From: Pecten maximus | Lineage: Eukaryota | Direction of reading: 5' to 3' | Assembly: GCF_902652985.1 (NCBI RefSeq) | Contig: NC_047028.1 | Coordinates: 10,416,001 to 10,480,000 of the forward strand | DNA: 64,000 nucleotides | Part shown: positions 13,131-30,800 of the stretch, piece after piece | Layout: every line of letters starts with the position of its first letter | How positions within the stretch are numbered: the stretch's first letter is position 1 | Translations under genes and position numbers: made by a program | The notes under the pieces: model-generated | What the model was told of the DNA's origin: nothing | What the model saw: the letters and a program-made list of their open reading frames with translations, nothing else | The model's database searches: none

Positions 13131-13807
13131 AATCTGGACCTGCAAGGTAAATTAATGCGATGAATACCCTTATTTGCAATCATCATCGCTAAATGACACC
13201 AACAAATGCAAGCATTGACTAGCCAAGCCTAAATAACAGTTGCATGTATTATCGGATAAGCGAAGATACATAAAAACAGCAACTAACTTTACATGATTTT
13301 GGTTCTTTCATTTCGCTTAACTCCAAATCTAGATTGGTGGTTTTGTAGTTTCAAAATATTTTATTAACAATACCCATATAAAATACAGTATTGTCAAAAG
13401 AATGAGACAACAGGCTAAGCCTATATAAGTCTTCTTATGAAGATATTCTGGTTGGACGTGGCAGAAAGATGCTTTGTTCCATATTTAGATACTAAATTAA
13501 TGACATATTGCTAAAAAGGCAATATTGGTTACTGAATAGTATTAGTTATATCAAAAATAGAAATCTAGATTGGTTGGTGAATTAGCTCCACAATTCAATA
13601 ATTTTGATGTCATATAATGACATTCTGAGCCTTGTCACTATCAAAATGAATTAAACGTGGCATAAAGATCCGGCAGACCTCGATTGTCCACCAGCAATAT
13701 CGACGACCTGCAATCTCAGAGGGTTAAACGAAAGGGCCAAACCTAAAAAATAAGCACTTTTGATTACGAAATGGGGGTAAAATAAAGTAAAAGAAGAATT
13801 AATCATC

Positions 13808-14093
13808 ATACAGTTGTTCCGTCCTTCTTTGACTTCTCAGTGATGCTAGGGACATCATACAATTGTTTTATCCTTGTAGGTCTCGTCAGTGGTGCTAGGA
13901 ACATCTTATAGATGTTTCGTTCGTCTAGGGGTCGTCGGTGATGTTAGGGGCACCATACAGTTATTGCATCCTTCTATGACTCGTCAGTGACGCTAGGGAC
14001 ACCATATAGTTATTGCATCCATTTTAGGACTCGCCAGTGACGCTAGGGACATCTTACAGCTGTTCCGTTGTGTTAGAGGTCGTCAATGACGCC
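13808..14093. repeat. Degenerate tandem repeat, about 49-bp unit, 5-6 copies
   Basis: GTGA(T/C)GCTAGGGAC-like motif recurs near 13840, 13889, 13938, 13987 and 14037. Confidence 0.8.
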
Positions 14094-14339: not shown

Positions 14340-14878
14340 TGATCTTTTTTTTAAATGATGCGAATGATATTGCCATAGATTTCTCAAAGATAATATCAGT
14401 TTGGATGGAATAGTCCTATATCCTATATTCTGTATGAGACATTTTGTTTTGTAACACACATGTCATGAAGCCGCAAAAGATCTACCCGGATATGCTGCCA
14501 TTAACACTGGATTGTCAGCATCGCCGATATGAAATGGCGGTCATCAATTCAGACACACCGCTAATAACTGTATGGTCAACAATACAAAAATCGCTTTAAA
14601 GCAAGACGGATAAATGTATGGGAAACTGATTGCAACCAAGGAGACACCAATGATAAGAATCAATCTGAACTAAAGAGATGCTGTATCCTTGATACTGTGG
14701 GGGTTACGTTCACTGCCTCTCACTGCACACCTGAGCTGTCATAAACGTAACTCCTGGATTACTGATGACGTTGTTGTTGTGGATGCAGGAATATTAATTT
14801 CAAAAAATGGTTAGTACATGAAGGAAAATGGAGATATCCAGACTTCTCGAACAGCTTGCGGTGCGCTGATTAAATATA

Positions 14879-15715
14879 TGTAGCGTTCCACTCGGGTATA
14901 CACGAGACGCTATTAATAAAAGTTCGAGATGGAAGCTGACTACGGCAGGGACAACTATGACACCAGACTAAAGTTCACATAATTTTATTTACACATCTAT
15001 GAAGTTCAACATATCATACATTAGGTTCACATAAATCCCATTCAGACGTACACATGTACACTTCGCATCGAATATACACTGTTTCACATAATATCCACGG
15101 GTGATAACTTCCAGTAGTATTATGTATTCCATAGTGAGACTAACACACTTAGTACATCCCATAAAAGTGTAAGTTAAATCCAAGTATCAATATCTTATCA
15201 CAAGTTGCGTGGAGTATTTCCCAAAGTAAAACTTTATCTCCTTGTTTTCGTCACTTTCACCCCTTATATACCACTTTCATACTGCATTTTCATTGGCTAG
15301 CATCTGCTCCTCCGACCTATATTTGGCTCCTCTGTCGCTCCTCACTCACGCTGATTGGTTAAGACCTGCTCCTCTCGCTCCTCCGACCTACTTACAGCTC
15401 GCTCCTCACTCTCTCTGATTGGTTAAACACTAGTTATAAATAGGACCTGTTACTAAATTTACACGGGCCTTATGCAACCTGTCAATCAGGTTGGGCCCTA
15501 ATACACAGCTCCACGATGCTACAGAACGTAAACAACTCCTTATAAGGAAAACTAGCTCCCTGCTGCCCCGTATATACACACACATATATAGACCCTATAC
15601 ACACCCTATGTAATACATATACATAGCCCACTACTATATTACCCTAAACAATAATACAATTAAACTACATTTCTAATTTAATAAACATAAGCGTGAAATA
15701 TATTTCCACGCTACA
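14879..15715 (-). repeat. 3' LTR (837 bp)
   Basis: Matches 20826-21662 except for one substitution seen by eye (15300 G vs 21247 A). Minus-strand AATAAA at 14984-14989. Confidence 0.97.
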
Positions 15716-15727
15716 CTACCCCCAACT
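15716..15727 (-). other. Polypurine tract
   Basis: AGTTGGGGGTAG directly abuts the 3' LTR on the minus strand. Confidence 0.85.
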
Positions 15728-16193
15728 TTCTAAGTTTTGTCTCCGACAAAAGTTAAAGAGATAACAATCAAATCCTGTCTATTTCAGAAAAATGTTCAAT
15801 ATACATGTATAAGCATTGAAAACGGTTTACATTATCAACTCACTCGCACAATAATATTTCAATCACAAATGATTCAAATAAAATACAGCGTCAATCATAA
15901 TGTTATGAACACAAAACACGATGTAAATCCAGTGAGAAAATATCACAACTAGTAGAAAAATGTTCCACATGATGATAACGTAATGTTTGCTTTTATGGTT
16001 AAAGTCAATCGTTAACACAGTGTTTATCATATCCGGACCAAATATCGGAGAATGTACCGTTATCCAAATAAAGTTCATTATTCATGTACCAGAGTCGTTT
16101 AAATGGTCACACAATAAAATCCATTGAATGTCACGTTATTCAAAAGTCACAGAATGTCTTTTCAGCATCTAAAAGTCTCATTAATAAATCCAT

Positions 16194-16688
16194 TCAGACA
16201 TCGAATTTTGTGTATTGGCGCGTCCCCATATTGGCAAAATGTTGTGGTATTTCATCCAATGTCTCCCGTACCAATCCCGGAAAGTCGACGAACTCAGGGT
16301 CCACACCTTCCGAGTAACCAATGGATGTATCCCGTCGGACTTCCTGGACTCCATCTGTAAATGTGGTTGTGGTCCGAGTCATGGATATCATGATGGTTTG
16401 TGTACTGACATTGCACACAAACACATTACTGGTTCCGGTCATAGGTTCATGTTCCACCTCGTCCTCGCTGACGTCACTGTATGCTGGGGCTCGCTCTGCC
16501 GTCTGCTTTACCTCCACCTCTTCTTCGCTGACGTCACTGTACCCTAGATCTGCATGTAGTTGATCAGCCGGCCAACTACGGTCTGGACATTCCGGCATAC
16601 CATCACCAGAAAAACATTGTTCTGTTGGCATGGTACAGGTAGGCACGCTAAATGAGTTCCACAGTTCATCAATATCCCAATCATTCCT
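16194..16688 (-). CDS. Acidic 164-aa open stretch continuing the pol frame after a single TAA
   Basis: The codons after the pol stop read RNDWDIDELWNSFSVPTCTMP... and run without a stop into the 150-aa track ORF 16194..16646. Contains a duplicated YSDVSE(E/D)EVE motif and NVSTQT. Confidence 0.55.
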   Translation of the reverse strand, partial: RNDWDIDELWNSFSVPTCTMPTEQCFSGDGMPECPDRSWPADQLHADLGYSDVSEEEVEVKQTAERAPAYSDVSEDEVEHEPMTGTSNVFVCNVSTQTIMISMTRTTTTFTDGVQEVRRDTSIGYSEGVDPEFVDFPGLVRETLDEIPQHFANMGTRQYTKFDV

Positions 16689-19445
16689 TTAGTCAGAGCA
16701 GGGTTGGCGTGTGGGACCACAACAGTGATTTCTCTGGTGCCTCTTCAGGTTGCTGCCTCTGGAAAATGTTTTCCCACAGTCTTCACATACTTTCAAAGAT
16801 TTGGTGTTCTCTTCATGATTCCTTTTCTCCGGTTTCCTGTTACTATTCCGGTCACCGGAGTCCACACTAAATGTACTATCCACAGTCACATCCGGTTTGA
16901 AAAGTATCTTTATGCTTTCAATACTATCCACTTCCGGTTGATCGATTATGTCCGCTTCAGGTTTGTCTATTATTACTTCCGGAATGTCCTGTAATTTCGA
17001 CATATTCGTATCGATAGCCTCGGATTGTTCAATATCCAACGGCATTTGGCATTGTTTACACGTTGCGGCTTTATCATTAATTAATCTAGACATGGCGTCG
17101 GCGTTGCAGTGACGTTTCCCAGGCCTATGTTGTATCTTAAAATCAAATGGACTCAGTCGCTGTATCCACCTGCAAATCTGTCCATCTGGCTCCTTGAATT
17201 TGTACAGCCAAGTCAACGATCCATGATCCGTCCGTAACAAGAATTCACGTCCAATCAGATAGTGCCGGAAGTATTTCACAAAGAAAACTACGGCCAACAT
17301 CTCTTTCCGGGTCACACAATAATTACGCTCAGCTTTACTGAGAGACCTACTGGCGTACGCAATAACCACTTCCTGGCCTTCCTGGACTTGTGACAACACT
17401 GCTCCTATAGCGTAATTGCTGGCATCCGTGTCAAGTATGAATTTACCCCCGTTTACGTCTGGATAGCTCAAAATAGGAGTTGATGTTAACCGTTCCTTCA
17501 GCTCATTAAAAGCTGTAGAGTGTTCTTCCGTCCACATCCATGATTTACCTTTCTTGGTAAGGTCGTGTAGACACTTCGCTATTAATGCGAAGTTTTTAAC
17601 AAACTTCCTGTAATAGGACGCTAATCCTAGGAAAGTTCTTAACTCTGAAATGGTCTCTGGCGCTTTCATCTTCGATATTGCCTCTATTTTTGAAGGGTCA
17701 GTTCGGACGCCATCCTGTGACACCACATGCCCCAGGAACGTCACTTCTCTGCAGAAAAAGTGACACTTTTTGGCCTTCAACTTTAAATTGGCACCGTCAA
17801 GCCTTTCCAAGACTGCCGTCAAGTTGTCCAAATGTTGTCCGAAATCCTTTCCGTACACAATAATATCATCCAGATAAAGCACTGCAATGTTCCACTGTAA
17901 TCCACTCAGCGCTTTCTCTATTATTCTGGAGAAAGTGGCCGGGGCGTTGGTCAAACCAAACGCCATCACTTTATATTGGTACAATCCACCTCGTGGCGTA
18001 GCGAAGGCGGTCAGCTTTTTGTCGTCCTCGCACATAGGCACCTGATGATAAGCCATATTGAGATCCAGAGATGAAAACCATTTAGCTCCACTCAACGCGT
18101 CCAGATTGTCGTCAATACGACTAATGGGGTAGGCATCCTTAATAGTTTTCTCATTAAGTCGCCGGTAATCCACACACACTCTCCAGGAATTGTCCCGCTT
18201 TTGGACCAAACCAAGTTGTGAACTCCATGGACTCTCCGATCGCTCTATCAATCCTTGTTGTTCTAACTTGGCTATTTCTTCATCCAAGATTTTACGTTTG
18301 TATATAGGCACTCTCCGTGGTGCCTCCTTAAATGGTACGGGATCCTTTAATTTTATAGTATGCTCGCCCAACGTAGTTCTTCCCATCTTTCCCTTAGGAT
18401 CCGCAAATGTGGTCTGGTGTTTTATCAAGAACTGCCTGAACTGCGCACGTTCCTCAGAATTCAGGTTAGTACATCCACGTTCGTACATTTCCATCAAATA
18501 TTCCGGTAACATGTCATCGTGCTCGGCAATGTTATCAACGTCTGAAACCGTCCTGCCGATATCTTTCACCGGTACAAAAACAGCCATGTTGGTCTCTTTC
18601 TTCACTGTGACTGGCTCGTCACCAGGGTTAAATAATCTCGTATATAGCGATTTGTGTGAAGTATCAACAAGAACATTCGCTAAGGCTAATCCGTGAGAAT
18701 GAATAAACACTTTCTCAGGTACGAGAACTCCAACATGTGAGTTAGTTGTTCTGGTCAGTCTTGATCTCACCACCATTTCGTGTTTAGCAGGTATAGTTAC
18801 AGTGTCCATACTGACCACTCTGCTGCTTTTAAATCCGTTTTCGTTGACAGATTCATCTTTAGGTTTTCTGTCCGTGATGATAAACATCCAGTTGTCATAG
18901 TCCCATTGACATTTAAATTGAGTTATGAAGTCCTGGCCCAATAAATTTGTTTTAATATTGGCCACAAAAACTCTAAAGTTTACACTAATATCTCCAAAAG
19001 TCAAACACATAATAGTAGTCCCTAACACCGACAACTCGTTTCCATCGGCTGTCTCGAACTTGGAACGAGCAGGCTCCAATATAGGACGATCCTTTCCATA
19101 AATGCTATAGTAGGTATCTTCGGTGATAAAAGTCCGTCTCGCTCCGGTGTCGACTTTCCAGATTAAAGGCGTACCTTCCACCATACCACGCACTTTCATA
19201 GCAGCATCGCACTTCACTCTCACTTCGAGTAAGTTATTAATCTCTCCCTGTCTGCAGTTTCCCGCGGAAGAAATAGCACTACAAAACTCTGTTTCTGTAT
19301 CCCTGTTTTCGGCGTCACTTAGTACAATTTCTTTTTGTCTCAAGGTTCCGCTGGGTACAGTTGAATTTTGTTTCACTCCTGTATTAGGCCTCTGTTCCTG
19401 CTCGGCGGGCGCATGGCCTACTGCTCCAGCCGGGACTCGTTTAAC
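16689..19445 (-). CDS. pol: Pol in the -1 frame relative to gag: aspartic protease, reverse transcriptase, RNase H, C-terminal C2H2 zinc finger; no integrase
   Basis: VDTGA (protease); RVCVDYRRLN, LDLNMAYHQV and YLDD (RT); DTDAS, KEMLAVV, TDH and NADAMSR (RNase H); CEDCGKTFSRGSNLKRHQRNH. The frame is open from just after a TGA at 19454-19452. The track start (GTG at 19376) is probably not a real initiation site. Confidence 0.93.
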   Translation of the reverse strand, partial: VKRVPAGAVGHAPAEQEQRPNTGVKQNSTVPSGTLRQKEIVLSDAENRDTETEFCSAISSAGNCRQGEINNLLEVRVKCDAAMKVRGMVEGTPLIWKVDTGARRTFITEDTYYSIYGKDRPILEPARSKFETADGNELSVLGTTIMCLTFGDISVNFRVFVANIKTNLLGQDFITQFKCQWDYDNWMFIITDRKPKDESVNENGFKSSRVVSMDTVTIPAKHEMVVRSRLTRTTNSHVGVLVPEKVFIHSHGLALANVLVDTSHKSLYTRLFNPGDEPVTVKKETNMAVFVPVKDIGRTVSDVDNIAEHDDMLPEYLMEMYERGCTNLNSEERAQFRQFLIKHQTTFADPKGKMGRTTLGEHTIKLKDPVPFKEAPRRVPIYKRKILDEEIAKLEQQGLIERSESPWSSQLGLVQKRDNSWRVCVDYRRLNEKTIKDAYPISRIDDNLDALSGAKWFSSLDLNMAYHQVPMCEDDKKLTAFATPRGGLYQYKVMAFGLTNAPATFSRIIEKALSGLQWNIAVLYLDDIIVYGKDFGQHLDNLTAVLERLDGANLKLKAKKCHFFCREVTFLGHVVSQDGVRTDPSKIEAISKMKAPETISELRTFLGLASYYRKFVKNFALIAKCLHDLTKKGKSWMWTEEHSTAFNELKERLTSTPILSYPDVNGGKFILDTDASNYAIGAVLSQVQEGQEVVIAYASRSLSKAERNYCVTRKEMLAVVFFVKYFRHYLIGREFLLRTDHGSLTWLYKFKEPDGQICRWIQRLSPFDFKIQHRPGKRHCNADAMSRLINDKAATCKQCQMPLDIEQSEAIDTNMSKLQDIPEVIIDKPEADIIDQPEVDSIESIKILFKPDVTVDSTFSVDSGDRNSNRKPEKRNHEENTKSLKVCEDCGKTFSRGSNLKRHQRNHCCGPTRQPCSD
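19385..19445 (-). promoter_or_regulatory. Predicted programmed -1 ribosomal frameshift signal (G_UUA_AAC plus H-type pseudoknot)
   Basis: Heptamer at 19445-19439 in gag codon register; 6-nt spacer; stem 1 pairs 19432-19422 with 19413-19403; loop UAGGCC pairs with GGCCUA at 19390-19385. Confidence 0.75.
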
Positions 19446-20725
19446 GACAGTTCATTTGTTTGATTGGAGGTCGAATTTCTCTTAACATCCGGGCACTTAT
19501 TTCTCAGATGTTCTTCACTACCACACTCAAAGCACTTCAGTGGTTTCGGCGGTTTGGTGGTACGTTTCCCGGTACTTCCGTTTCCGGGTTGCTTGGCTGA
19601 CGACATAATTTGCACATTGTACACTGAGCGCTTCTGGTCCTTAGCGTTCCGTTTTTCTCCCAACAGAATACATTCCTCCTGCATGGCAAATGTCACCGCC
19701 TCCTGTAATGTCTTGGGGCGCATGCGTTTAACCGCTAAACGGAAATTATCGGAAGAATGACAGTTATTAAGGAAAGTTTTTAAACTGCTCTCCTCCACAT
19801 ATTCTCTGTTGTTGGGGTATGCTCGTCTGTACAAGTCTTCCATAGTCTGTGCGAAATCTCTGTACGATTCGTCTGTTTTCCGTTTCCTTAATTTAGCCTC
19901 CGCTACATAACTTTCTTTCATGGATCTGTGTCCAAACCGGTCGTCCATTTTATTCTTTAATGTATCCCAGTCCTGCTTAACGGTATTATTCAGACCGTAA
20001 GCATACACCTCGGCTTGACCACGCAGTACAGTGAAAAATATACGCAAAGTCCGGGCAGGTGTCCAGCCATTCAGGTCAGCTACATTTTCGAAATACCGGA
20101 TATATTCACTCCATATATCTTTACCGGTACCACTGAATGTCCGCTTCAACGGAACTTGCTGACCCCTTAAACTGATATCGTTCCGGGTGGACTGCTCTCC
20201 ATATTCACGACTGGGCGTCTCCAATACATCTAATCCCTGAGACATATTTTGCACCATGTCTATCATCATGGGATTCCGTAACAACTTCACTATGAGCGAA
20301 AATGTGATTAACAGGAGTATCACAAGAGTTCCCAAAACTATAAACTCCTTAGTGAAACAGACGATGACGTGGTTGGGGTATCTGTGGTACAGAATACCAA
20401 CACAACTTCCCAAACACACCAACACAAGAATCCATTTCAAAATAAATCCTTTGTATTGATTCCCCGTTATGCGTGAATTAGTGGTTCTCGCCTGTGAAGT
20501 AGTCTCACATCCATAACTACTCCCCGGAGTCCTTTGCCCCACATGCGGAATATCGTTCACATCCGGTGTATCCACATCTGGACTTCTTAAAGTCCGAGCC
20601 GGGCTACTTGACCCATCGCTATTCCCGACTTCACTCTCATCGAAATCAAAACTTAAATTTCGACGCACACGCGGTGAAGTAAGCCCACGCTGAGATGGTC
20701 TCCTTGGTGTGTCCGGAATATCCAT
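19418..20725 (-). CDS. gag: Gag, 435 aa: disordered N-terminus, two predicted transmembrane helices, Gypsy capsid domain, CCHC zinc knuckle
   Basis: Capsid-type motif FSGTGKDIWSEYIRYFENVADLNGW...LRGQA...RFG; knuckle CFECGSEEHLRNKC (CX2CX4HX4C); hydrophobic runs at about aa 93-113 and 128-149. Confidence 0.93.
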   Translation of the reverse strand: MDIPDTPRRPSQRGLTSPRVRRNLSFDFDESEVGNSDGSSSPARTLRSPDVDTPDVNDIPHVGQRTPGSSYGCETTSQARTTNSRITGNQYKGFILKWILVLVCLGSCVGILYHRYPNHVIVCFTKEFIVLGTLVILLLITFSLIVKLLRNPMMIDMVQNMSQGLDVLETPSREYGEQSTRNDISLRGQQVPLKRTFSGTGKDIWSEYIRYFENVADLNGWTPARTLRIFFTVLRGQAEVYAYGLNNTVKQDWDTLKNKMDDRFGHRSMKESYVAEAKLRKRKTDESYRDFAQTMEDLYRRAYPNNREYVEESSLKTFLNNCHSSDNFRLAVKRMRPKTLQEAVTFAMQEECILLGEKRNAKDQKRSVYNVQIMSSAKQPGNGSTGKRTTKPPKPLKCFECGSEEHLRNKCPDVKRNSTSNQTNELSLNESRLEQ

Positions 20726-20805
20726 TGTCGAAAATTATCACAGATGTAAAATCCAAATAGTCTTATAATGTGAAAGTCCAGCTACCGTAGTCATAAAACA
20801 TTCCA

Positions 20806-20823
20806 TCCCCATCGCTGCCACCA
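20806..20823 (-). other. Primer binding site, probably tRNA-Leu
   Basis: TGGTGGCAGCGATGGGGA lies 2 nt inside the 5' LTR and is near-complementary to the metazoan tRNA-Leu(AAG/UAG) 3' end ...AUCCCACCGCUGCCACCA. Confidence 0.85.
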
Positions 20824-20825
20824 AT

Positions 20826-21662
20826 TGTAGCGTTCCACTCGGGTATACACGAGACGCTATTAATAAAAGTTCGAGATGGAAGCTGACTACGGCAGGGACA
20901 ACTATGACACCAGACTAAAGTTCACATAATTTTATTTACACATCTATGAAGTTCAACATATCATACATTAGGTTCACATAAATCCCATTCAGACGTACAC
21001 ATGTACACTTCGCATCGAATATACACTGTTTCACATAATATCCACGGGTGATAACTTCCAGTAGTATTATGTATTCCATAGTGAGACTAACACACTTAGT
21101 ACATCCCATAAAAGTGTAAGTTAAATCCAAGTATCAATATCTTATCACAAGTTGCGTGGAGTATTTCCCAAAGTAAAACTTTATCTCCTTGTTTTCGTCA
21201 CTTTCACCCCTTATATACCACTTTCATACTGCATTTTCATTGGCTAACATCTGCTCCTCCGACCTATATTTGGCTCCTCTGTCGCTCCTCACTCACGCTG
21301 ATTGGTTAAGACCTGCTCCTCTCGCTCCTCCGACCTACTTACAGCTCGCTCCTCACTCTCTCTGATTGGTTAAACACTAGTTATAAATAGGACCTGTTAC
21401 TAAATTTACACGGGCCTTATGCAACCTGTCAATCAGGTTGGGCCCTAATACACAGCTCCACGATGCTACAGAACGTAAACAACTCCTTATAAGGAAAACT
21501 AGCTCCCTGCTGCCCCGTATATACACACACATATATAGACCCTATACACACCCTATGTAATACATATACATAGCCCACTACTATATTACCCTAAACAATA
21601 ATACAATTAAACTACATTTCTAATTTAATAAACATAAGCGTGAAATATATTTCCACGCTACA
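20826..21662 (-). repeat. 5' LTR (837 bp) with U3 promoter elements
   Basis: Minus-strand TATATAA at 21217-21211, preceded by three CCAAT boxes (ATTGG on plus near 21239, 21301 and 21365). Confidence 0.97.
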
Positions 21663-21885
21663 TATACAACACGAACGATACAGATCTGTACACCGTTTAC
21701 CTGTCAGTATTGTAACAGAGAACGACACGTAGATTACACAGTTTCATGTTTCGATATTAGGATGAGAGAATATCAAAGTCGATATATTCATGACATGCAG
21801 CATTACCAGACACGCATGCGTAATGATGGAAAGACATCAAGACAGCAGTTATATAATAAGCGGGTAGATAATATTCCACAGAAAC

Positions 21886-24800
21886 ATGGATGTCCCCGTC
21901 GTTCCAATACCTGACCCCCACCTCGCTGACTACGTCGTTATCGCCATCTTCCTCTGTGTCTGTTTGGGAATCGGCGTTTACTATGGTTACCAGACCAGCA
22001 AAAACCCTTCTGTGGAAAACTATTTCTTCGGGAACCGACGTCTGTCGATAGCACCGGTGGCTCTGTCCCTTTTTGTAACGTTTATATCCGCGATTTCGGT
22101 GATGGGTATACCAGCCGAGGTATATGCTTTTGGGATCCGGATTATCTACGGTGGAGTCTCCAATCTGTTATCCATGATTATAGCCAATTTCACTATTGTC
22201 CCTGTTCTATATCCACTGAAACTGACCAGTACATACCAGGTAAAGTTTTTCGTTAAAACATATTAATATAAGCTTGCCTGCCAAATAAGTTAAAGGAATA
22301 TTTGAAAGGTTATAATTGTACAATTCCATTACTTTTAATTTCACTTTTTTTTTATTTGTTATGGATAAGTGGTTAGACATCGCATAACGCCTATTCAGAT
22401 AACAAAATCCTTTGATACTTTAGACAATACAAACTTTTAAGACTATATTAAGTGTAACATGTACAAAATGTATTGTCTTATTACTGATTTTAACCGCACT
22501 CTACTAATAAGGGTAATGATGATTTATGTACACGTATATAAATACTGAATACCAAACTTTATAGATACACGGCGTCACAGAGGAAACTGCTGTTATTGGT
22601 ATCAAAGTGTGGTCCTCGAAGTTTTCAATGTATTACAAATAGCTAAACCGGCAATTAAAGTTCATGTAATTTTCTCAAAATACAAATGCACATACTACTT
22701 AACATTGAACTTGCCTTGTATATAAACTTGCCTTGTATATAAACTTGCCTTGTACATAAACTTGCCTTGTATATAAACTTGCGCTGTATATAAACTTGCG
22801 CTGTATATAAACTTGCCTTGTATATAAACTTGCCTTGTATATAAACTTGCGCTGTATATAAACTTGCCTTGTATATAAACTTGCCTTGTACATAAACTTG
22901 CCTTGTACATAAACTTGCCTTGTATATAAACTTGCCTTGTATATAAACTTGCCTTGTATATAAACTTGCCTTGTATATAAACTTGCCTTGTATATAAACT
23001 TGCGCTGTATATAAACTTGCCTTGTACATAAACTTGCCTTGTACATAAACTTGCCTTGTACATAAACTTGCCTTGTATATAAACTTGCCTTGTATATAAA
23101 CTTGCCTTGTATATAAACTTGCGCTGTATATAAACTTGCCTTGTATATAAACTTGCCTTGTATATAAACTTGCCTTGTATATAAACTTGCGCTGTATATA
23201 AACTTGCCTTGTATATAAACTTGCCTTGTATATAAACTTGCCTTGTATATAAACTTGCCTTGTATATAAACTTGCCTTGTATATAAACTTGCGCTGTATA
23301 TAAACTTGCCTTGTATATAAACTTGCCTTGTATATAAACTTGCCTTGTATATAAACTTGCGCTGTATATAAACTTGCCTTGTATATAAACTTGCCTTGTA
23401 TATAAACTTGCGCTGTATATAAACTTGCCTTGTATATAAACTTGCCTTGTACATAAACTTGCCTTGTATATAAACTTGCCTTGTATATAAACTTGCCTTG
23501 TATATAAACTTGCGCTGTATATAAGCTTGCGCTGTATATAAACTTGCGCTGTATATAAACTTGCGCTGTATATAAACTTGCGCTGTATATAAACTTGCCT
23601 TGTATATAAACTTGCCTTGTATATAAACTTGCCTTGTACATAAACTTGCCTTGTATATAAACTTGCCTTGTATATAAACTTGCGCTGTATATAAACTTGC
23701 GCTGTATATAAACTTGCGCTGTATATAAACTTGCGCTGTATATAAACTTGCGCTGTATATAAACTTGCGCTGTATATAAACTTGCGCTGTATATAAACTT
23801 GCGCTGTATATAAACTTGCGCTGTATATAAACTTGCCTTGTATATAAACTTGCGCTGTATATAAACTTGCCTTGTATATAAACTTGCGCTGTATATAAAC
23901 TTGCGCTGTATGTAAACTTGCCTTGTATATAAACTTGCGCTGTATATAAACTTGCCTTGTATATAAACTTGCCTTGTATATAAACTTGCGTTTTATATAA
24001 ACTTGCCTTGTATATAAACTTGCGCTGTATATAAACTTGCCTTGTATATAAACTTGCCTTGTATATAAACTTGCCTTGTATATAAACTTGCCTTGTATAT
24101 AAACTTGCGCTGTATATAAACTTGCGCTGTATATAAACTTGCGCTGTATATAAACTTGCGCTGTATATAAACTTGCGCTGTATATAAACTTGCGCTGTAT
24201 ATAAACTTGCGCTGTATATAAACTTGCCTTGTATATAAACTTGCGCTGTATATAAACTTGCCTTGTATATAAACTTGCGCTGTATATAAACTTGCGCTGT
24301 ATATAAACTTGCCTTGTATATAAACTTGCGCTGTATATAAACTTGCCTTGTATATAAACTTGCCTTGTATATAAACTTGCGTTTTATATAAACTTGCGCT
24401 GTATATAAACTTGCGCTGTATATAAACTTTCGTTGCATATAAACTTTCGTTGCATATAAACTTTCGTTGCATATAAACTATCGTTGCATATAAACTTTCG
24501 CTGTATATAAATTTTCGTTGTACATAAACTTTCTTTGTATATAAACTTTCGTTGTATATAACTTTTCGTTGTTTTCATGGTTGCTATGGAACCCAGAATA
24601 TAAATACAACAAATATTGTATCTATTATCGTTGCATCGGCTATTGGCTAACCACGAACGTATATATATACAACATTTTAAGGAACTGCAAGACGATTTAT
24701 ATACTTTATACTGAGCTAGTTAATGAAATCCATTTTGATCAAGACAATTGGATTGTCTAATTGGTGCCATCATGATCTCAACAGACACAGCTAACAGGTA

Positions 24801-27800: not shown

Positions 27801-30800
27801 CCTTCCCCAATGTATTATATAGATATAGTTAGTCTTGTTGACCTTCCCCAATGTATTATACAGATCTAGTTAGTCCTGTTAACCTTCCCCAACGTATTAT
27901 AAAGATATAGTTAGTCTTGTTAACTTTCCCCGATGTATTATAAAGATAGTTAGTCTTGTTAACCTTCCCCAGTGTATTATAAAGATAGTTAGTCTTGTTA
28001 ACCTTCCCTAATGTATTATAAAGATATCGTTAGTCTTGTTAACCTCCTCCAATGTATTATAAAGGTAAAGTTATGATTAGTTATAGTTGTGTTCTCTCAT
28101 TTTGATCGCAATGGAGACAAAGTCGAGAGTGAATTGAAAGATAAGGCTATGGTGACTTGCATTTTATTTTCAATATTTCACAAGACAAGATTTGTCGCTG
28201 ACGATATCCTAATTTCGTGTTCAAAGAAAATGTTTTTTACCCATATCGATCTTCATTCCGCACTTGTAGGTGTACAATGTTCTAACTATTTATCGAATTT
28301 AATCAACCTAATAGCTATCAATCTCATCTATATAATTTCCTTTCGCCTCACAATAATGTAAATAAAGGCAATGGATGAGTTCAACGTTTTGGTGTACTCA
28401 AGTTGTTTTGACCACCTTCACCTTCATCAGATAGGGAAGATGAGTTAACAAGCTCCGTCAACCTCTCGCGTCGCTTGGTAACTGATTGCGCTCACCTCTC
28501 GCCTGATTTGCTCGGCGGAAATGAGTACAGGTGTGTTTTAGCTCAGTAAGAGTGTTAACGTTCTCAGACTATCACACAGGACTAAAACACTGGGGGGGAA
28601 AGTGGGGTTATAATCGATTTATCCAGATATTCTTATATAAAGATTAAATAATGCAGAGGCATATTAACCTATTTTCTACCACAATACTCCTGCGTTATTC
28701 AACTCTCAGACCATCAGTTAATCATTACAGCTGTTGATTAACAATCTGTTTATACCACACGTGGTATAAACTCTGTACGCATTTTGATTGGCTAACACGG
28801 TGAACTTTGACCCAAGCTGCAATTGTTATTGACGTCATCAATAATCTAATGACGTCACATCACCGGGTCCCGGACGTCACCGGTACACTTTATTTGCATA
28901 CGCGAAATTATACTTGGCCACGTTTCCCTTTGATTCAAGCCGATATTATTGTGGTAGAAACAGGTCACACGACTCGAAATTGTTGGATATGGAATTTATT
29001 TCAAACGAGTAAGTTATTTTTTAAAAGTTGCAAAAAACACTCGCTAAAGCTCGTGTCTTTTGTAACTTTTAAAAAATAACTTACTCGTGTGAAATAAATT
29101 CCATATCCAACAACCACTCGTTGTGTAACCTCTATATAACCTCTGCTCTGTATACTAAAATGTAGTACCTATAAAGTATATAATTGACCAGAGTTCACAA
29201 TTATGTTATGATAATATTTGTTGAAGCTATTTGCAAGAGGTCGATGCATACCCAGGCATTTTGACCACAACTTCAAAGTCTACACTGTTACAATAATTTA
29301 GAATATATTTTGATAATAAAATTACAAGATGGAAAGTTTTATGCAATTGCGATTTATATTTTCATCGTTAGATAATGTTGACATTTCGTATCAAATTAGC
29401 AAATGCAGATACTTTTTCTTATTCTGAATGCATTTCATCTCAAAATTTCAAAAAAAAGTTGTTTTTAAAGTAAACTTTTCTTTATACAACATGAAGACCA
29501 CGTATTAGTTTAATATTTGCCATCCACAGGGTAGCATTGTCGTTGGAACAAGACACTCAGTCATCAGGGTTGCCACAGAGGGACACAGACTGGAGTGGTT
29601 TAAGTAAAAACCATTATTGAATGATACAAAGTAACAGTTTATACGTAAAGGGTGTAGCATCCTACGTGTTGTGTTGAAATGCATAAACAACTATTAAGTT
29701 ATTTAAAATTCCTTAATTTGAGACGTCAACTCAAAAGTAAACGTTTTGTAATAAAAATCGACTGTAGTACTTTGTATGGAGTGTTATCTAGTCTATCAAT
29801 CAATAACATCACTGTTGATAATGTTGAGTTCAGAAAATGCCGAATATAGAATTCCATTTTGTTTAGGTGGTCATCTGCCATGAACATATACTTAAATAAC
29901 TTAAATACACTATATCTGTTTTCATATGACCATAACTACTTTCACTGGTTTACTTTCGGATGACCACCTTTAATAATGGCAATGCATGATAGAATATAAA
30001 GTTTTAAAAAACTCAGTAATTGGTTTTAGCTTTGACCCGGATCCAAGGGTCCGTCATACAAATTGGGGATTCCTGTTTGGCGCATTGTTTGCATTTTTAC
30101 CAAACTGGTGTAATCAAGCCGGCGTGCAGAGGTTTTCATCTCTCCGAAGTCTCGAGTCCGCGTACAGGTGAGTGATTTAGTATGGCAACGTGGCACGTGT
30201 GAAATTGTCAACGAAACATGAAACCATACATGGTGTGAATATGAAAACAATAATTTCTCCAATAGATTTGTCGCAAATCTACATTCAGATGATGTATTCA
30301 GTATTCTGATATCATAATAGTGTTGAACTCTGTTTCAAACTGTGCTTATGAACAATTGTATCTTTATTGCTTTACTGTTCCATACAAATTGATACAAAGC
30401 AAAAAAACAAATAATAAGAAAAAAACAGTTCAGTAACAGAAGGATATATCAATATTTACTGCAAGTCATGTAATGTACGTGTAAACCAATTTTACAATAA
30501 CCATACACTAACGCCCAGCAACAAACATCTAAGTAAATCCAGCATATCTATCTATAAAACAGCTGATATTTTACAGGACTTTCTGGTTGCTGATTCCCGT
30601 AGCTGTAGCGTACCATATAATCCTGGGGTATTTTGGAATCCTTATATACTCGTACTACAACATGTTGGGATGTGATCCTGTCCAAGCCGGATTAATATCC
30701 AATTTCAATCAGGTAACCGCATGTAATCTTGAATGTGAGAATGCACAAACAACGACGTAAACGTCAACTGATATCAATAACATGACAATACAATAAGGCT

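Follow-up and report, generated by a model that had tools for sequence, protein, structure and literature searches.

On balance, we favour the reading that a conserved pair of helices in the Gag of a Ty3/Gypsy element, predicted from its sequence to be an integral membrane hairpin, likely replaces the retroviral matrix domain, and that the particles assemble on the endoplasmic reticulum (ER) or the nuclear envelope. The element lies on the minus strand of a 64-kb stretch of DNA, which as a whole is referred to here as the window (Table 1).

Table 1. Features of the element, in window coordinates and in element order
Feature	Position	Strand	Remarks
TSD TATA, 4 bp	21663..21666	-	partner copy 14875-14878
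5' LTR, TG...CA	20826..21662	-	837 nt; 1 mismatch to 3' LTR
Primer-binding site, TGGTGGCAGCG type	20808..20823	-	directly adjoins LTR
gag ORF, 435 aa	19418..20725	-	unbroken; start context ACAATGG
Disordered N-tail, aa 1-88, S/T-P-rich, with RRNLSF motif	20462..20725	-	pLDDT about 40-53
Predicted TM helix 1, aa 94-112	20390..20446	-	Kyte-Doolittle 2.45
Short inter-helix loop (aa 113-127) with Y/F-P...T-K-E pattern; predicted luminal	20345..20389	-	conserved columns and charge
Predicted TM helix 2, aa 128-149	20279..20344	-	Kyte-Doolittle 2.97
Variable linker, aa 150-190	20156..20278	-	7% mean identity; 24-323 aa among relatives
Capsid domain, aa 191-364	19634..20155	-	pLDDT >90; Foldseek matches PNMA2/Arc/dArc
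CCHC zinc knuckle, aa 397-412	19490..19537	-	Pfam zf-CCHC E 0.004, below curated cut-off
Candidate -1 slippery site G TTA AAC	19439..19445	-	within gag/pol overlap
pol of window copy, with protease, RT and RNase H but lacking integrase	16689..19451	-	integrase lost through deletion
Joint of 1,739-nt internal deletion	16798..16821	-	defined against full-length copy L024
Second C2H2 finger of ORF3	16725..16790	-	Pfam zf-C2H2; put into pol frame by deletion
Acidic ORF3 remainder	16194..16688	-	severed by in-frame stop in window copy
Polypurine tract	15716..15731	-	upstream of 3' LTR on element strand
3' LTR	14879..15715	-	paired with 5' LTR

Layout of the element and of its Gag

The window element is a young Ty3/Gypsy LTR retrotransposon. 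It carries the hallmarks of such elements, namely direct TG...CA LTRs (mismatched at 1/837 nt), a target site duplication, a primer-binding site and a polypurine tract, and the top PDB match of its Pol is Ty3 Gag-Pol (E 3e-117). Duplications of 4 bp also flank all eight of the other two-LTR copies checked. The start of the primer-binding site, which is presumably that of tRNA-Leu, is identical in other hairpin families, and the geometry of the gag/pol overlap, together with a GTTAAAC or TTTAAAC motif, is common to families A-D; we infer -1 frameshifting at G TTA AAC.

The first-pass annotation had described two hydrophobic segments in frame with a capsid domain and a CCHC knuckle, a description borne out by the unbroken ORF, by hydropathy and by the capsid fold. 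The top 19-aa Kyte-Doolittle windows of Gag cover aa 94-112 (2.45) and aa 128-146 (2.97), with position-independent biological-scale sums of -0.73 and -4.65, respectively, and two such windows were present in 4 of 2000 shuffled Gags. AlphaFold2, proposed at the outset as a check, models helices at aa 89-115 and 120-150 (pLDDT about 70-84). The concern that no transmembrane (TM) helices would be predicted is thus answered by hydropathy, which recovers two. On the basis of hydropathy, conservation and charge bias, the pair is predicted to be transmembrane; the signature of an integral N-in/C-in hairpin, that is, two hydrophobic helices of ~19-22 aa with positive-inside flanks, is read here purely from hydropathy and charge. 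Downstream, Gag has a two-lobed retroelement capsid fold, shared with PNMA2 (Foldseek E 3.7e-4) and Arc (E 4.8e-4), followed by the CCHC knuckle, which zf-CCHC matched in 21/52 relatives.

The same annotation had singled out an integrase-less, zinc-finger-capped Pol as part of a new system. As a description of the window copy this holds; as a new system it does not, since the arrangement results from an internal deletion of 1,739 nt in an element with a normal integrase. The deletion removed the integrase and the beginning of ORF3, and an identical joint is present in one sequencing-run contig. Full-length copies, which make up 3 of the 12 close copies read in the genome G000, rule out an integrase-less lineage: two of them, L024 and L034, have the order PR-RT-RH-IN with a Pfam integrase in both, and the ORF downstream of the integrase encodes two C2H2 fingers (246 codons in L034), a module that sets the hairpin element apart from Ty3/Gypsy elements, whose LTR-PBS-gag-pol-PPT-LTR plan and Pol domain order (Metaviridae) it otherwise follows. 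Splicing was rejected as their origin, since none of the four long joints listed that skip pol has GT..AG ends. The window copy would need integrase in trans.

Distribution, conservation and selection of the helix pair

Judged by sequence comparison, the helix pair is a trait of a clade and wider in distribution than first reported. It was found in 74 of 92 first matches, and all 12 without a TM segment begin fewer than 100 aa ahead of the capsid. Among proteins with at least 130 aa before the capsid, the pair is carried by 83/90 close relatives, 7/11 sister-group members and 0/13 library outgroup proteins, counts in which carriers are favoured because the library samples were drawn with hairpin-containing queries. 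Capsid and TM segments are thus kept together across a clade, a point on which the first-pass annotation had asked for a check. In G000 itself, a capsid-only search recovered other families that have the pair at 50-69% capsid identity, while the predicted two-helix anchor that marks the hairpin Gag is absent from all 27 outgroup Gags of this genome. The named clade members come from mussels and scallop. Viral contigs yielded no relative, metagenome contigs one near-identical locus, and the ESM Atlas search generic Gag clusters only.

In trees that contain no reference elements of the named mollusc Gypsy groups (MolGy1-16, C-clade, CsRN1, Cigr-1; PMC6238403), six carriers split from 22 others on RT (support 100/100), and 27 carriers plus one non-carrier split from 30 others on the capsid alone (100/99). 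Monophyly of the 27 carriers to the exclusion of P0166 gave a p-AU of 0.05, because this hairpin-less Gag nests among them. P0100 and P0101 are likewise hairpin-less members of the clade, so the hairpin can be lost. The hairpins of the close and sister groups showed no sequence homology to each other (hhalign probability 4.5% vs 2.8% for the reversed control).

Within the hairpin the gap fraction is 0.00, as against 0.31 and 0.26 in the flanking regions, and a mean Kyte-Doolittle value of 2.3 is retained despite 28-29% identity. Among 52 aligned rows, the flanking W91 and W98 columns of helix 1 hold W in 49, P117 and E127 of the loop are kept in 46 and 39, and K147 of helix 2 in 43. The density of K/R is 0.105 in the loop and 0.18-0.20 in the flanks, the flanks being denser in 54 of 65 non-redundant carriers. 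This charge pattern fits an N-in/C-in topology with both ends cytosolic, in agreement with the earlier proposal that the N-terminus and the capsid lie on one side. As for dN/dS on the TM segment, also suggested beforehand, the hairpin gives a pN/pS of 0.36 (family A vs B) and a dN/dS of about 0.43-0.46 (C vs D); one close pair gave 1.70 on few changes and a second close pair 0.67. The capsid, with a pN/pS of 0.12-0.26, is under stronger constraint, and the values for the hairpin suggest moderate purifying selection.

These observations bear on the notion that the segment is hydrophobic by mere chance or is a host fragment captured a single time. T-rich DNA does favour hydrophobic codons, and weak Pfam matches to membrane families are scattered among the relatives, each in 1-2 of 52 members. 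The pair is, however, clade-wide, indel-free and at the same position, and no host family is matched consistently; a captured host TM family was rejected on the Pfam results and on a PDB sequence search that returned weak knuckle matches only. Conservation across families at 50-60% capsid identity refutes this explanation, which we regard as scarcely credible, and with it the one-off fragment that the annotation had feared.

Another reading makes the membrane-bound Gag an accessory or regulatory product, similar to glyco-Gag or acting as a sink that limits Gag, with shells built from soluble Gag begun at a downstream Met. Such residues lie directly behind TM2 in the window family (Met 153, 154 and 157), the leader contains upstream ATGs (four ahead of the gag ATG in the window copy), and in-clade Gags without a hairpin exist. 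Against this, 38 of the 65 non-redundant carriers have a Met anywhere in the linker and 27 lack one in the stretch from TM2 to the capsid, the first ATG is preceded by A at -3 and followed by G at +4 in 4/4 families examined, and no hairpin-skipping joint occurs among those listed from four runs (contigs whose RNA nature is guessed). We give this reading little credence, and initiation at the MMIDM methionines, raised as a threat to the hairpin, is made unlikely by their lack of conservation and by the strong context of the first ATG.

Proposed assembly on internal membranes and competing destinations

The conserved predicted helices ahead of the shell domain lead us to propose that the particles are probably put together while anchored in an internal membrane, with no envelope gene involved. 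TM1 would serve as internal signal-anchor and TM2 would stop the transfer, so that both the N-tail and CA-NC stay in the cytosol, and -1 frameshifting would yield Gag-Pol bearing the same anchor. Anchored Gag would then collect element RNA at the membrane. As every subunit would be integral, a closed shell would have to be either wrapped by membrane, budding into a cisterna as IAP does, or cut free; the element protease may cleave the variable linker, a likely release site, and so liberate the core. More speculatively, the S/T-P-rich N-tail may time the route of the cDNA to chromatin with the cell cycle.

Alternatively, anchored Gag might reach multivesicular bodies or the plasma membrane and bud there as an env-less enveloped particle that passes between cells. 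An integral anchor on each subunit would by geometry give an enveloped particle, and in 48/65 the amphipathicity of the loop exceeds that of its own shuffles. Moreover, transfer from soma to germline without env has been reported for the MDG1 group of Drosophila, Gypsy elements which, like the hairpin elements, lack env and encode a transmembrane protein, sORF2, a separate, short, single-TM, N-out and often myristoylated FAST-like protein (10.1101/2025.03.14.642691). The hairpin elements, however, differ from these in that both helices belong to Gag itself, which begins MDIP, and have no separate 60-210 aa ORF with one TM segment, N-out orientation and MGxxxS/T. The loop is merely about 14-25 aa long, and PPxY, PTAP or YPxL motifs occur in 1/60 N-tails and 1/60 linkers, the two regions scanned, no more than in shuffles. 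The absence of env, claimed earlier for the window copy, extends to six family elements. Apart from Gag, the one long TM ORF in these six, the scan showed only short hydrophobic ORFs (40-71 aa), and no separate TM ORF is conserved among them; what follows pol is a C2H2/acidic ORF without a TM window, not the env ORF, with its ectodomain and TM segment, that errantiviruses carry in this place (PMC13524379). With no env and no enrichment of late-domain motifs, cell-to-cell spread is unsupported, and we consider budding unlikely. A bolder version, in which a deep Gypsy lineage would possess a self-enveloping capsid, a single polyprotein providing shell, membrane anchor and possibly fusion element so that env-less enveloped particles exit the cell, seems doubtful.

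The hairpin may also be a nuclear-envelope address by which Gag or the pre-integration complex reaches chromatin, perhaps when the ER rewraps it after mitosis, with the N-tail under cyclin/CDK control. Two-TM proteins of the inner nuclear membrane provide the analogy, their layout being alike: a disordered N-tail, two TM segments and a soluble C-terminal part. At least two S/T-P sites are present in 56/60 tails (shuffled mean 28), a full CDK motif in 21/60 (shuffled 8.9) and R[RKN]xL[FLSM], which we take to be a putative cyclin docking site, in 23/60 (shuffled 0.8) as compared with 0/22 outgroup regions, although these counts are not independent because the tails are related by descent. Basic NLS-like motifs, on the other hand, are not enriched (3/60 vs 2.7), and we hold this address to be improbable.

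Precedents and implications

For the preferred reading, assembly fixed to an internal membrane, mouse IAP is the best working model. The leader of IAP Gag is a single signal-like hydrophobic segment at the extreme N-terminus, whereas the anchor of the hairpin Gag is internal, paired and placed behind about 90 polar residues; IAP, furthermore, is a retrovirus derivative. A change in N-terminal Gag is reported to direct IAP particles to the membrane of the ER, with no need for env (PMC2791754). A second precedent for an ER-directed Gag is yeast Ty1, in which SRP-dependent delivery to the ER during translation seeds the assembly of particles; Ty1 Gag enters the lumen and then returns, the abstract describing no membrane anchor (PMC3945221), and Ty1 is Copia-type whereas the hairpin element is Gypsy. 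In ASPRV1/SASPase, too, a hydrophobic segment precedes a Gag-like domain and is freed by self-proteolysis, but this is a domesticated host gene with one segment, in which its authors report that DeepTMHMM calls no TM, and with the capsid CTD only (PMC11402058). Plant Athila/Tat Gypsy elements are described as having additional ORFs for predicted TM proteins of unknown role (PMC11728184, PMC4408406), which are separate and unfused to the capsid, unlike the hairpin.

To our knowledge, retroelement capsids are generally taken to be soluble or lipid-anchored. No description of a TM hairpin in a Gypsy Gag was found in the literature searched, Repbase Reports, GyDB and subscription journals aside, and the word 'transmembrane' has 0 occurrences in the main text, supplements apart, of mollusc and annelid LTR surveys. 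Hairpin Gags would account for many of the 'hypothetical proteins' of membrane-like appearance that stand unnamed in data from bivalves. If true, a self-enveloping capsid would give retroelements a third means of becoming infectious, next to Env and sORF2, and would be a candidate carrier of horizontal transfer between animals that feed by filtering. A clade with an integral-membrane Gag would imply another way of placing, wrapping and maturing a particle, in which a shell whose subunits are anchored can close only if it is enveloped by membrane or cut loose by proteolysis at the right time. It would offer a simple natural system, based on Gag alone and controlled by the soluble outgroup Gags of that genome, that bears on how env-less elements assembling on internal membranes, such as IAP, reach the nucleus or other cells.

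The hydrophobic pair of the window Gag

The minus-strand element in the window belongs to Ty3/Gypsy by all features tested. The first-pass annotation had claimed an in-frame hydrophobic pair in its intact Gag, and this claim was upheld: 19-aa windows at aa 94–112 and 128–146 reach KD 2.45 and 2.97, two windows above 1.6 KD occurred in only 4 of 2000 shuffled versions of the protein, and AlphaFold2, supplied with a 52-sequence alignment, yielded a disordered N-terminal tail, helices at 89–115 and 120–150 (pLDDT about 70–84) and a capsid with pLDDT above 90. That the pair is a product of chance seems to us extremely improbable. The capsid fold resembles those of PNMA2, Arc and dArc (Foldseek). 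In five relatives (P0003, P0009, P0030, P0035 and P0095) an open, hydrophobic in-frame stretch lies upstream of the likely start Met; T-rich DNA may have produced it by chance, or it may be a third helix of an extended form. Since an SSF exon stands back to back with the 5′ LTR, the insertion may affect the SSF promoter.

Features of the window element, its surroundings and related elements
Feature	Location	Strand	Remarks
gag ORF	19418–20725	minus	435 aa, unbroken
LTRs	21662–20826 and 15715–14879	minus	837 nt each; one base differs between the two
Target-site duplication (TATA), PBS, PPT	window element		all present
Leader	20726–20825		four uATGs; short in-frame uORF, its stop 6 codons upstream of gag
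N-terminal tail	20462–20725, and relatives		S/T-P sites and RRNL-type motif enriched
Two-C2H2 + acidic module	window 16194–16790; L034:6911–7648; L093, L094
Two-C2H2 module fused to Pol	P0389, P0393, P0394, P0401, P0404, P0405, P0409, P0410
SSF (sodium:solute symporter) coding exon	21886–22266	plus	~224 nt from 5′ LTR
Minisatellite	22555–24700		17-bp unit, more than 100 units
Tandem repeat	13800–14090		49-bp
Inverted repeat	28955–29138		91 nt, 84% complementary, 2-nt spacer
Gag-only LTR elements	L096:1107–6012; L097		~4.9 kb; hairpin kept; Gag at least 590 aa

Distribution, constraint and predicted topology of the hairpin

Among 92 homologues, 74 have at least two TM windows before the capsid, six have one and 12 have none, all of the latter beginning less than 100 aa ahead of the capsid. 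When homologues and profile-search matches were pooled and limited to proteins whose capsid is preceded by 130 aa or more, the pair was found in 83 of 90 close relatives (window protein and near-duplicates counted; named sources of this tier are Mytilus species and Mizuhopecten yessoensis), in 7 of 11 members of a more distant sister tier (at least one window in 10 of 11) and in none of 13 outgroups. Because these library samples were drawn with hairpin-containing queries, a capsid-only search of G000, the genome that holds the window itself, served as an unbiased check; it recovered further families with the pair at 50–69% capsid identity. The pair was absent from all 27 outgroup Gags there (29 loci, two left out for a truncated N-terminus), one of which has a single TM window, upstream of its first Met. 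An RT tree built from 28 G000 elements sets its six carriers apart from the rest by a branch with 100/100 support. A second tree, of 58 proteins, used the capsid alone and was rooted at midpoint only; here the 27 carriers and the hairpin-less P0166 share one side of a 100/99 branch, and this side divides into close and sister tiers. P0100 and P0101 are further in-clade Gags without the hairpin. The conservation of TM segments plus capsid within a clade, proposed earlier as a check, is thus borne out, and by these sequence comparisons the hairpin is a clade trait, not a one-off. Within the close tier, hhalign shows homology between hairpins with short and with long loops (95.6%; reversed control 0.95%). 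The sister-tier hairpin matches them in layout, with no detectable sequence homology (4.5%; reversed 2.8%). In the portions of the literature consulted, which included PMC6238403, PMC8556966, PMC13524379, PMC12786077, PMC9412291, PMC11402058, PMC11728184 and PMC4408406 but not Repbase or GyDB, no Gypsy Gag with an internal TM hairpin was found described. The clade-wide hairpin Gag is a real architecture and apparently an undescribed one.

In a hand-chosen alignment of 52 mostly full-length rows (the window protein and 51 of the 92 homologues), the hairpin is free of gaps and retains a mean KD of 2.3 at 28–29% identity, with W91, W98, P117, E127 and K147 strongly conserved; gaps make up 31% of the N-terminal tail and 26% of the linker between second helix and capsid. 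In the dN/dS check suggested for the TM segment, the ratios between families lie below one (pN/pS 0.36 for A versus B, where dS is saturated; dN/dS about 0.43–0.46 for C versus D), with weaker constraint than on the capsid; three closer pairs gave pN/pS of 1.70, on few changes, 0.67 and 0.34.

By the positive-inside rule, positively charged residues mark the cytosolic side of a membrane protein. K/R density in 65 non-redundant carriers is 0.18 ahead of the first helix and 0.20 behind the second, as against 0.105 in the loop, and the flanks are richer than the loop in 54 of them; together with the polar tail of ~90 aa, this pattern fits a predicted N-in/C-in hairpin. The first-pass annotation had raised a start at a downstream Met cluster. 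Only 38 of the 65 have a Met between second helix and capsid, and in four families the first gag ATG is flanked by A at −3 and by G at +4, so that a universal soluble isoform appears unlikely. That the membrane form is itself an accessory isoform we consider quite improbable.

N-terminal tails may also be exchanged: the capsids of L093 and L095, and of L094 and L097, are only 71–72% identical, their tails 89–92%, which suggests module swapping between families. The Gags of L096 (LTRs 100% identical) and L097 have a CxxC...H motif between second helix and capsid. DSG motifs, which presumably recall a phosphodegron, are enriched in carrier tails (20 of 60); enrichment extends to outgroup Gags (DSGxxS/T in 8 of 22).

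Integrase loss and the zinc-finger module

Twelve of 22 gag matches in G000, window included, are near-identical and uninterrupted (94–100%). The 11 others than the window comprise five indel-free copies, one of which lacks the first ATG, one with an in-frame indel only and five with frameshifting indels. Of 12 close copies examined over 10 kb each, three are full-length (L024, L025 and L034; 8.5–8.6 kb). Pfam scans of L024 and L034 identified PR-RT-RH-IN in both, and in L034 pol is followed by a 246-codon ORF with two C2H2 fingers. Relative to these, 1,739 nt are missing from the window copy, a loss that removed the integrase and put the second finger into the pol frame. The 'integrase-less, zinc-finger-capped Pol', once put forward as part of a candidate new system, is therefore an ordinary non-autonomous derivative. 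A different integrase-removing deletion of the same region is common to L023, L027, L032 and L033; a similar joint occurs in three sequencing runs (X1–X3), of which X2 and X3, only guessed to be RNA, have no cover across the integrase region. The two-C2H2 module is a clade feature: it forms a separate ORF in two further G000 families, and among 120 library Pol matches 8 have it fused behind an integrase. Together with its acidic part, it could serve in targeting or transactivation.

Two records deserve mention. Run X13, under another organism code, contains 55% of gag words and many contigs of at least 99% identity; its source may be closely related, the run may be mislabelled, or the element may have been transferred. 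The Pol P0414 shares 67% identity with that of the window family; its entry bears the name of a bacterial symbiont MAG, and it is probably host DNA in that bin.

A possible role at membranes

Gag directed to the ER has precedents in Ty1 (PMC3945221) and IAP (PMC2791754). An anchored Gag might leave the cell and spread from cell to cell, but we think this unlikely, as no env was found in the elements scanned, no sORF2-like gene by the criteria of 10.1101/2025.03.14.642691, and late-domain motifs are not enriched. A nuclear-envelope address under cell-cycle control, somewhat less likely still, would accord with the enrichment of S/T-P and RxL-like motifs in the tails, but NLS motifs are not enriched. 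We lean, with modest confidence, towards hairpin-anchored Gag and Gag-Pol on the ER or nuclear envelope, a model all of whose steps we infer. The first helix would act as signal-anchor and the second as stop-transfer; a −1 frameshift at G/T TTA AAC, present in the gag/pol overlap of four families, would yield Gag-Pol; both proteins would sit in that membrane with CA-NC on the cytosolic side, and RNA would be packaged there. Integral subunits would then form a closed shell, which would have to be either wrapped by the membrane or freed by the protease through a cut in the variable linker.
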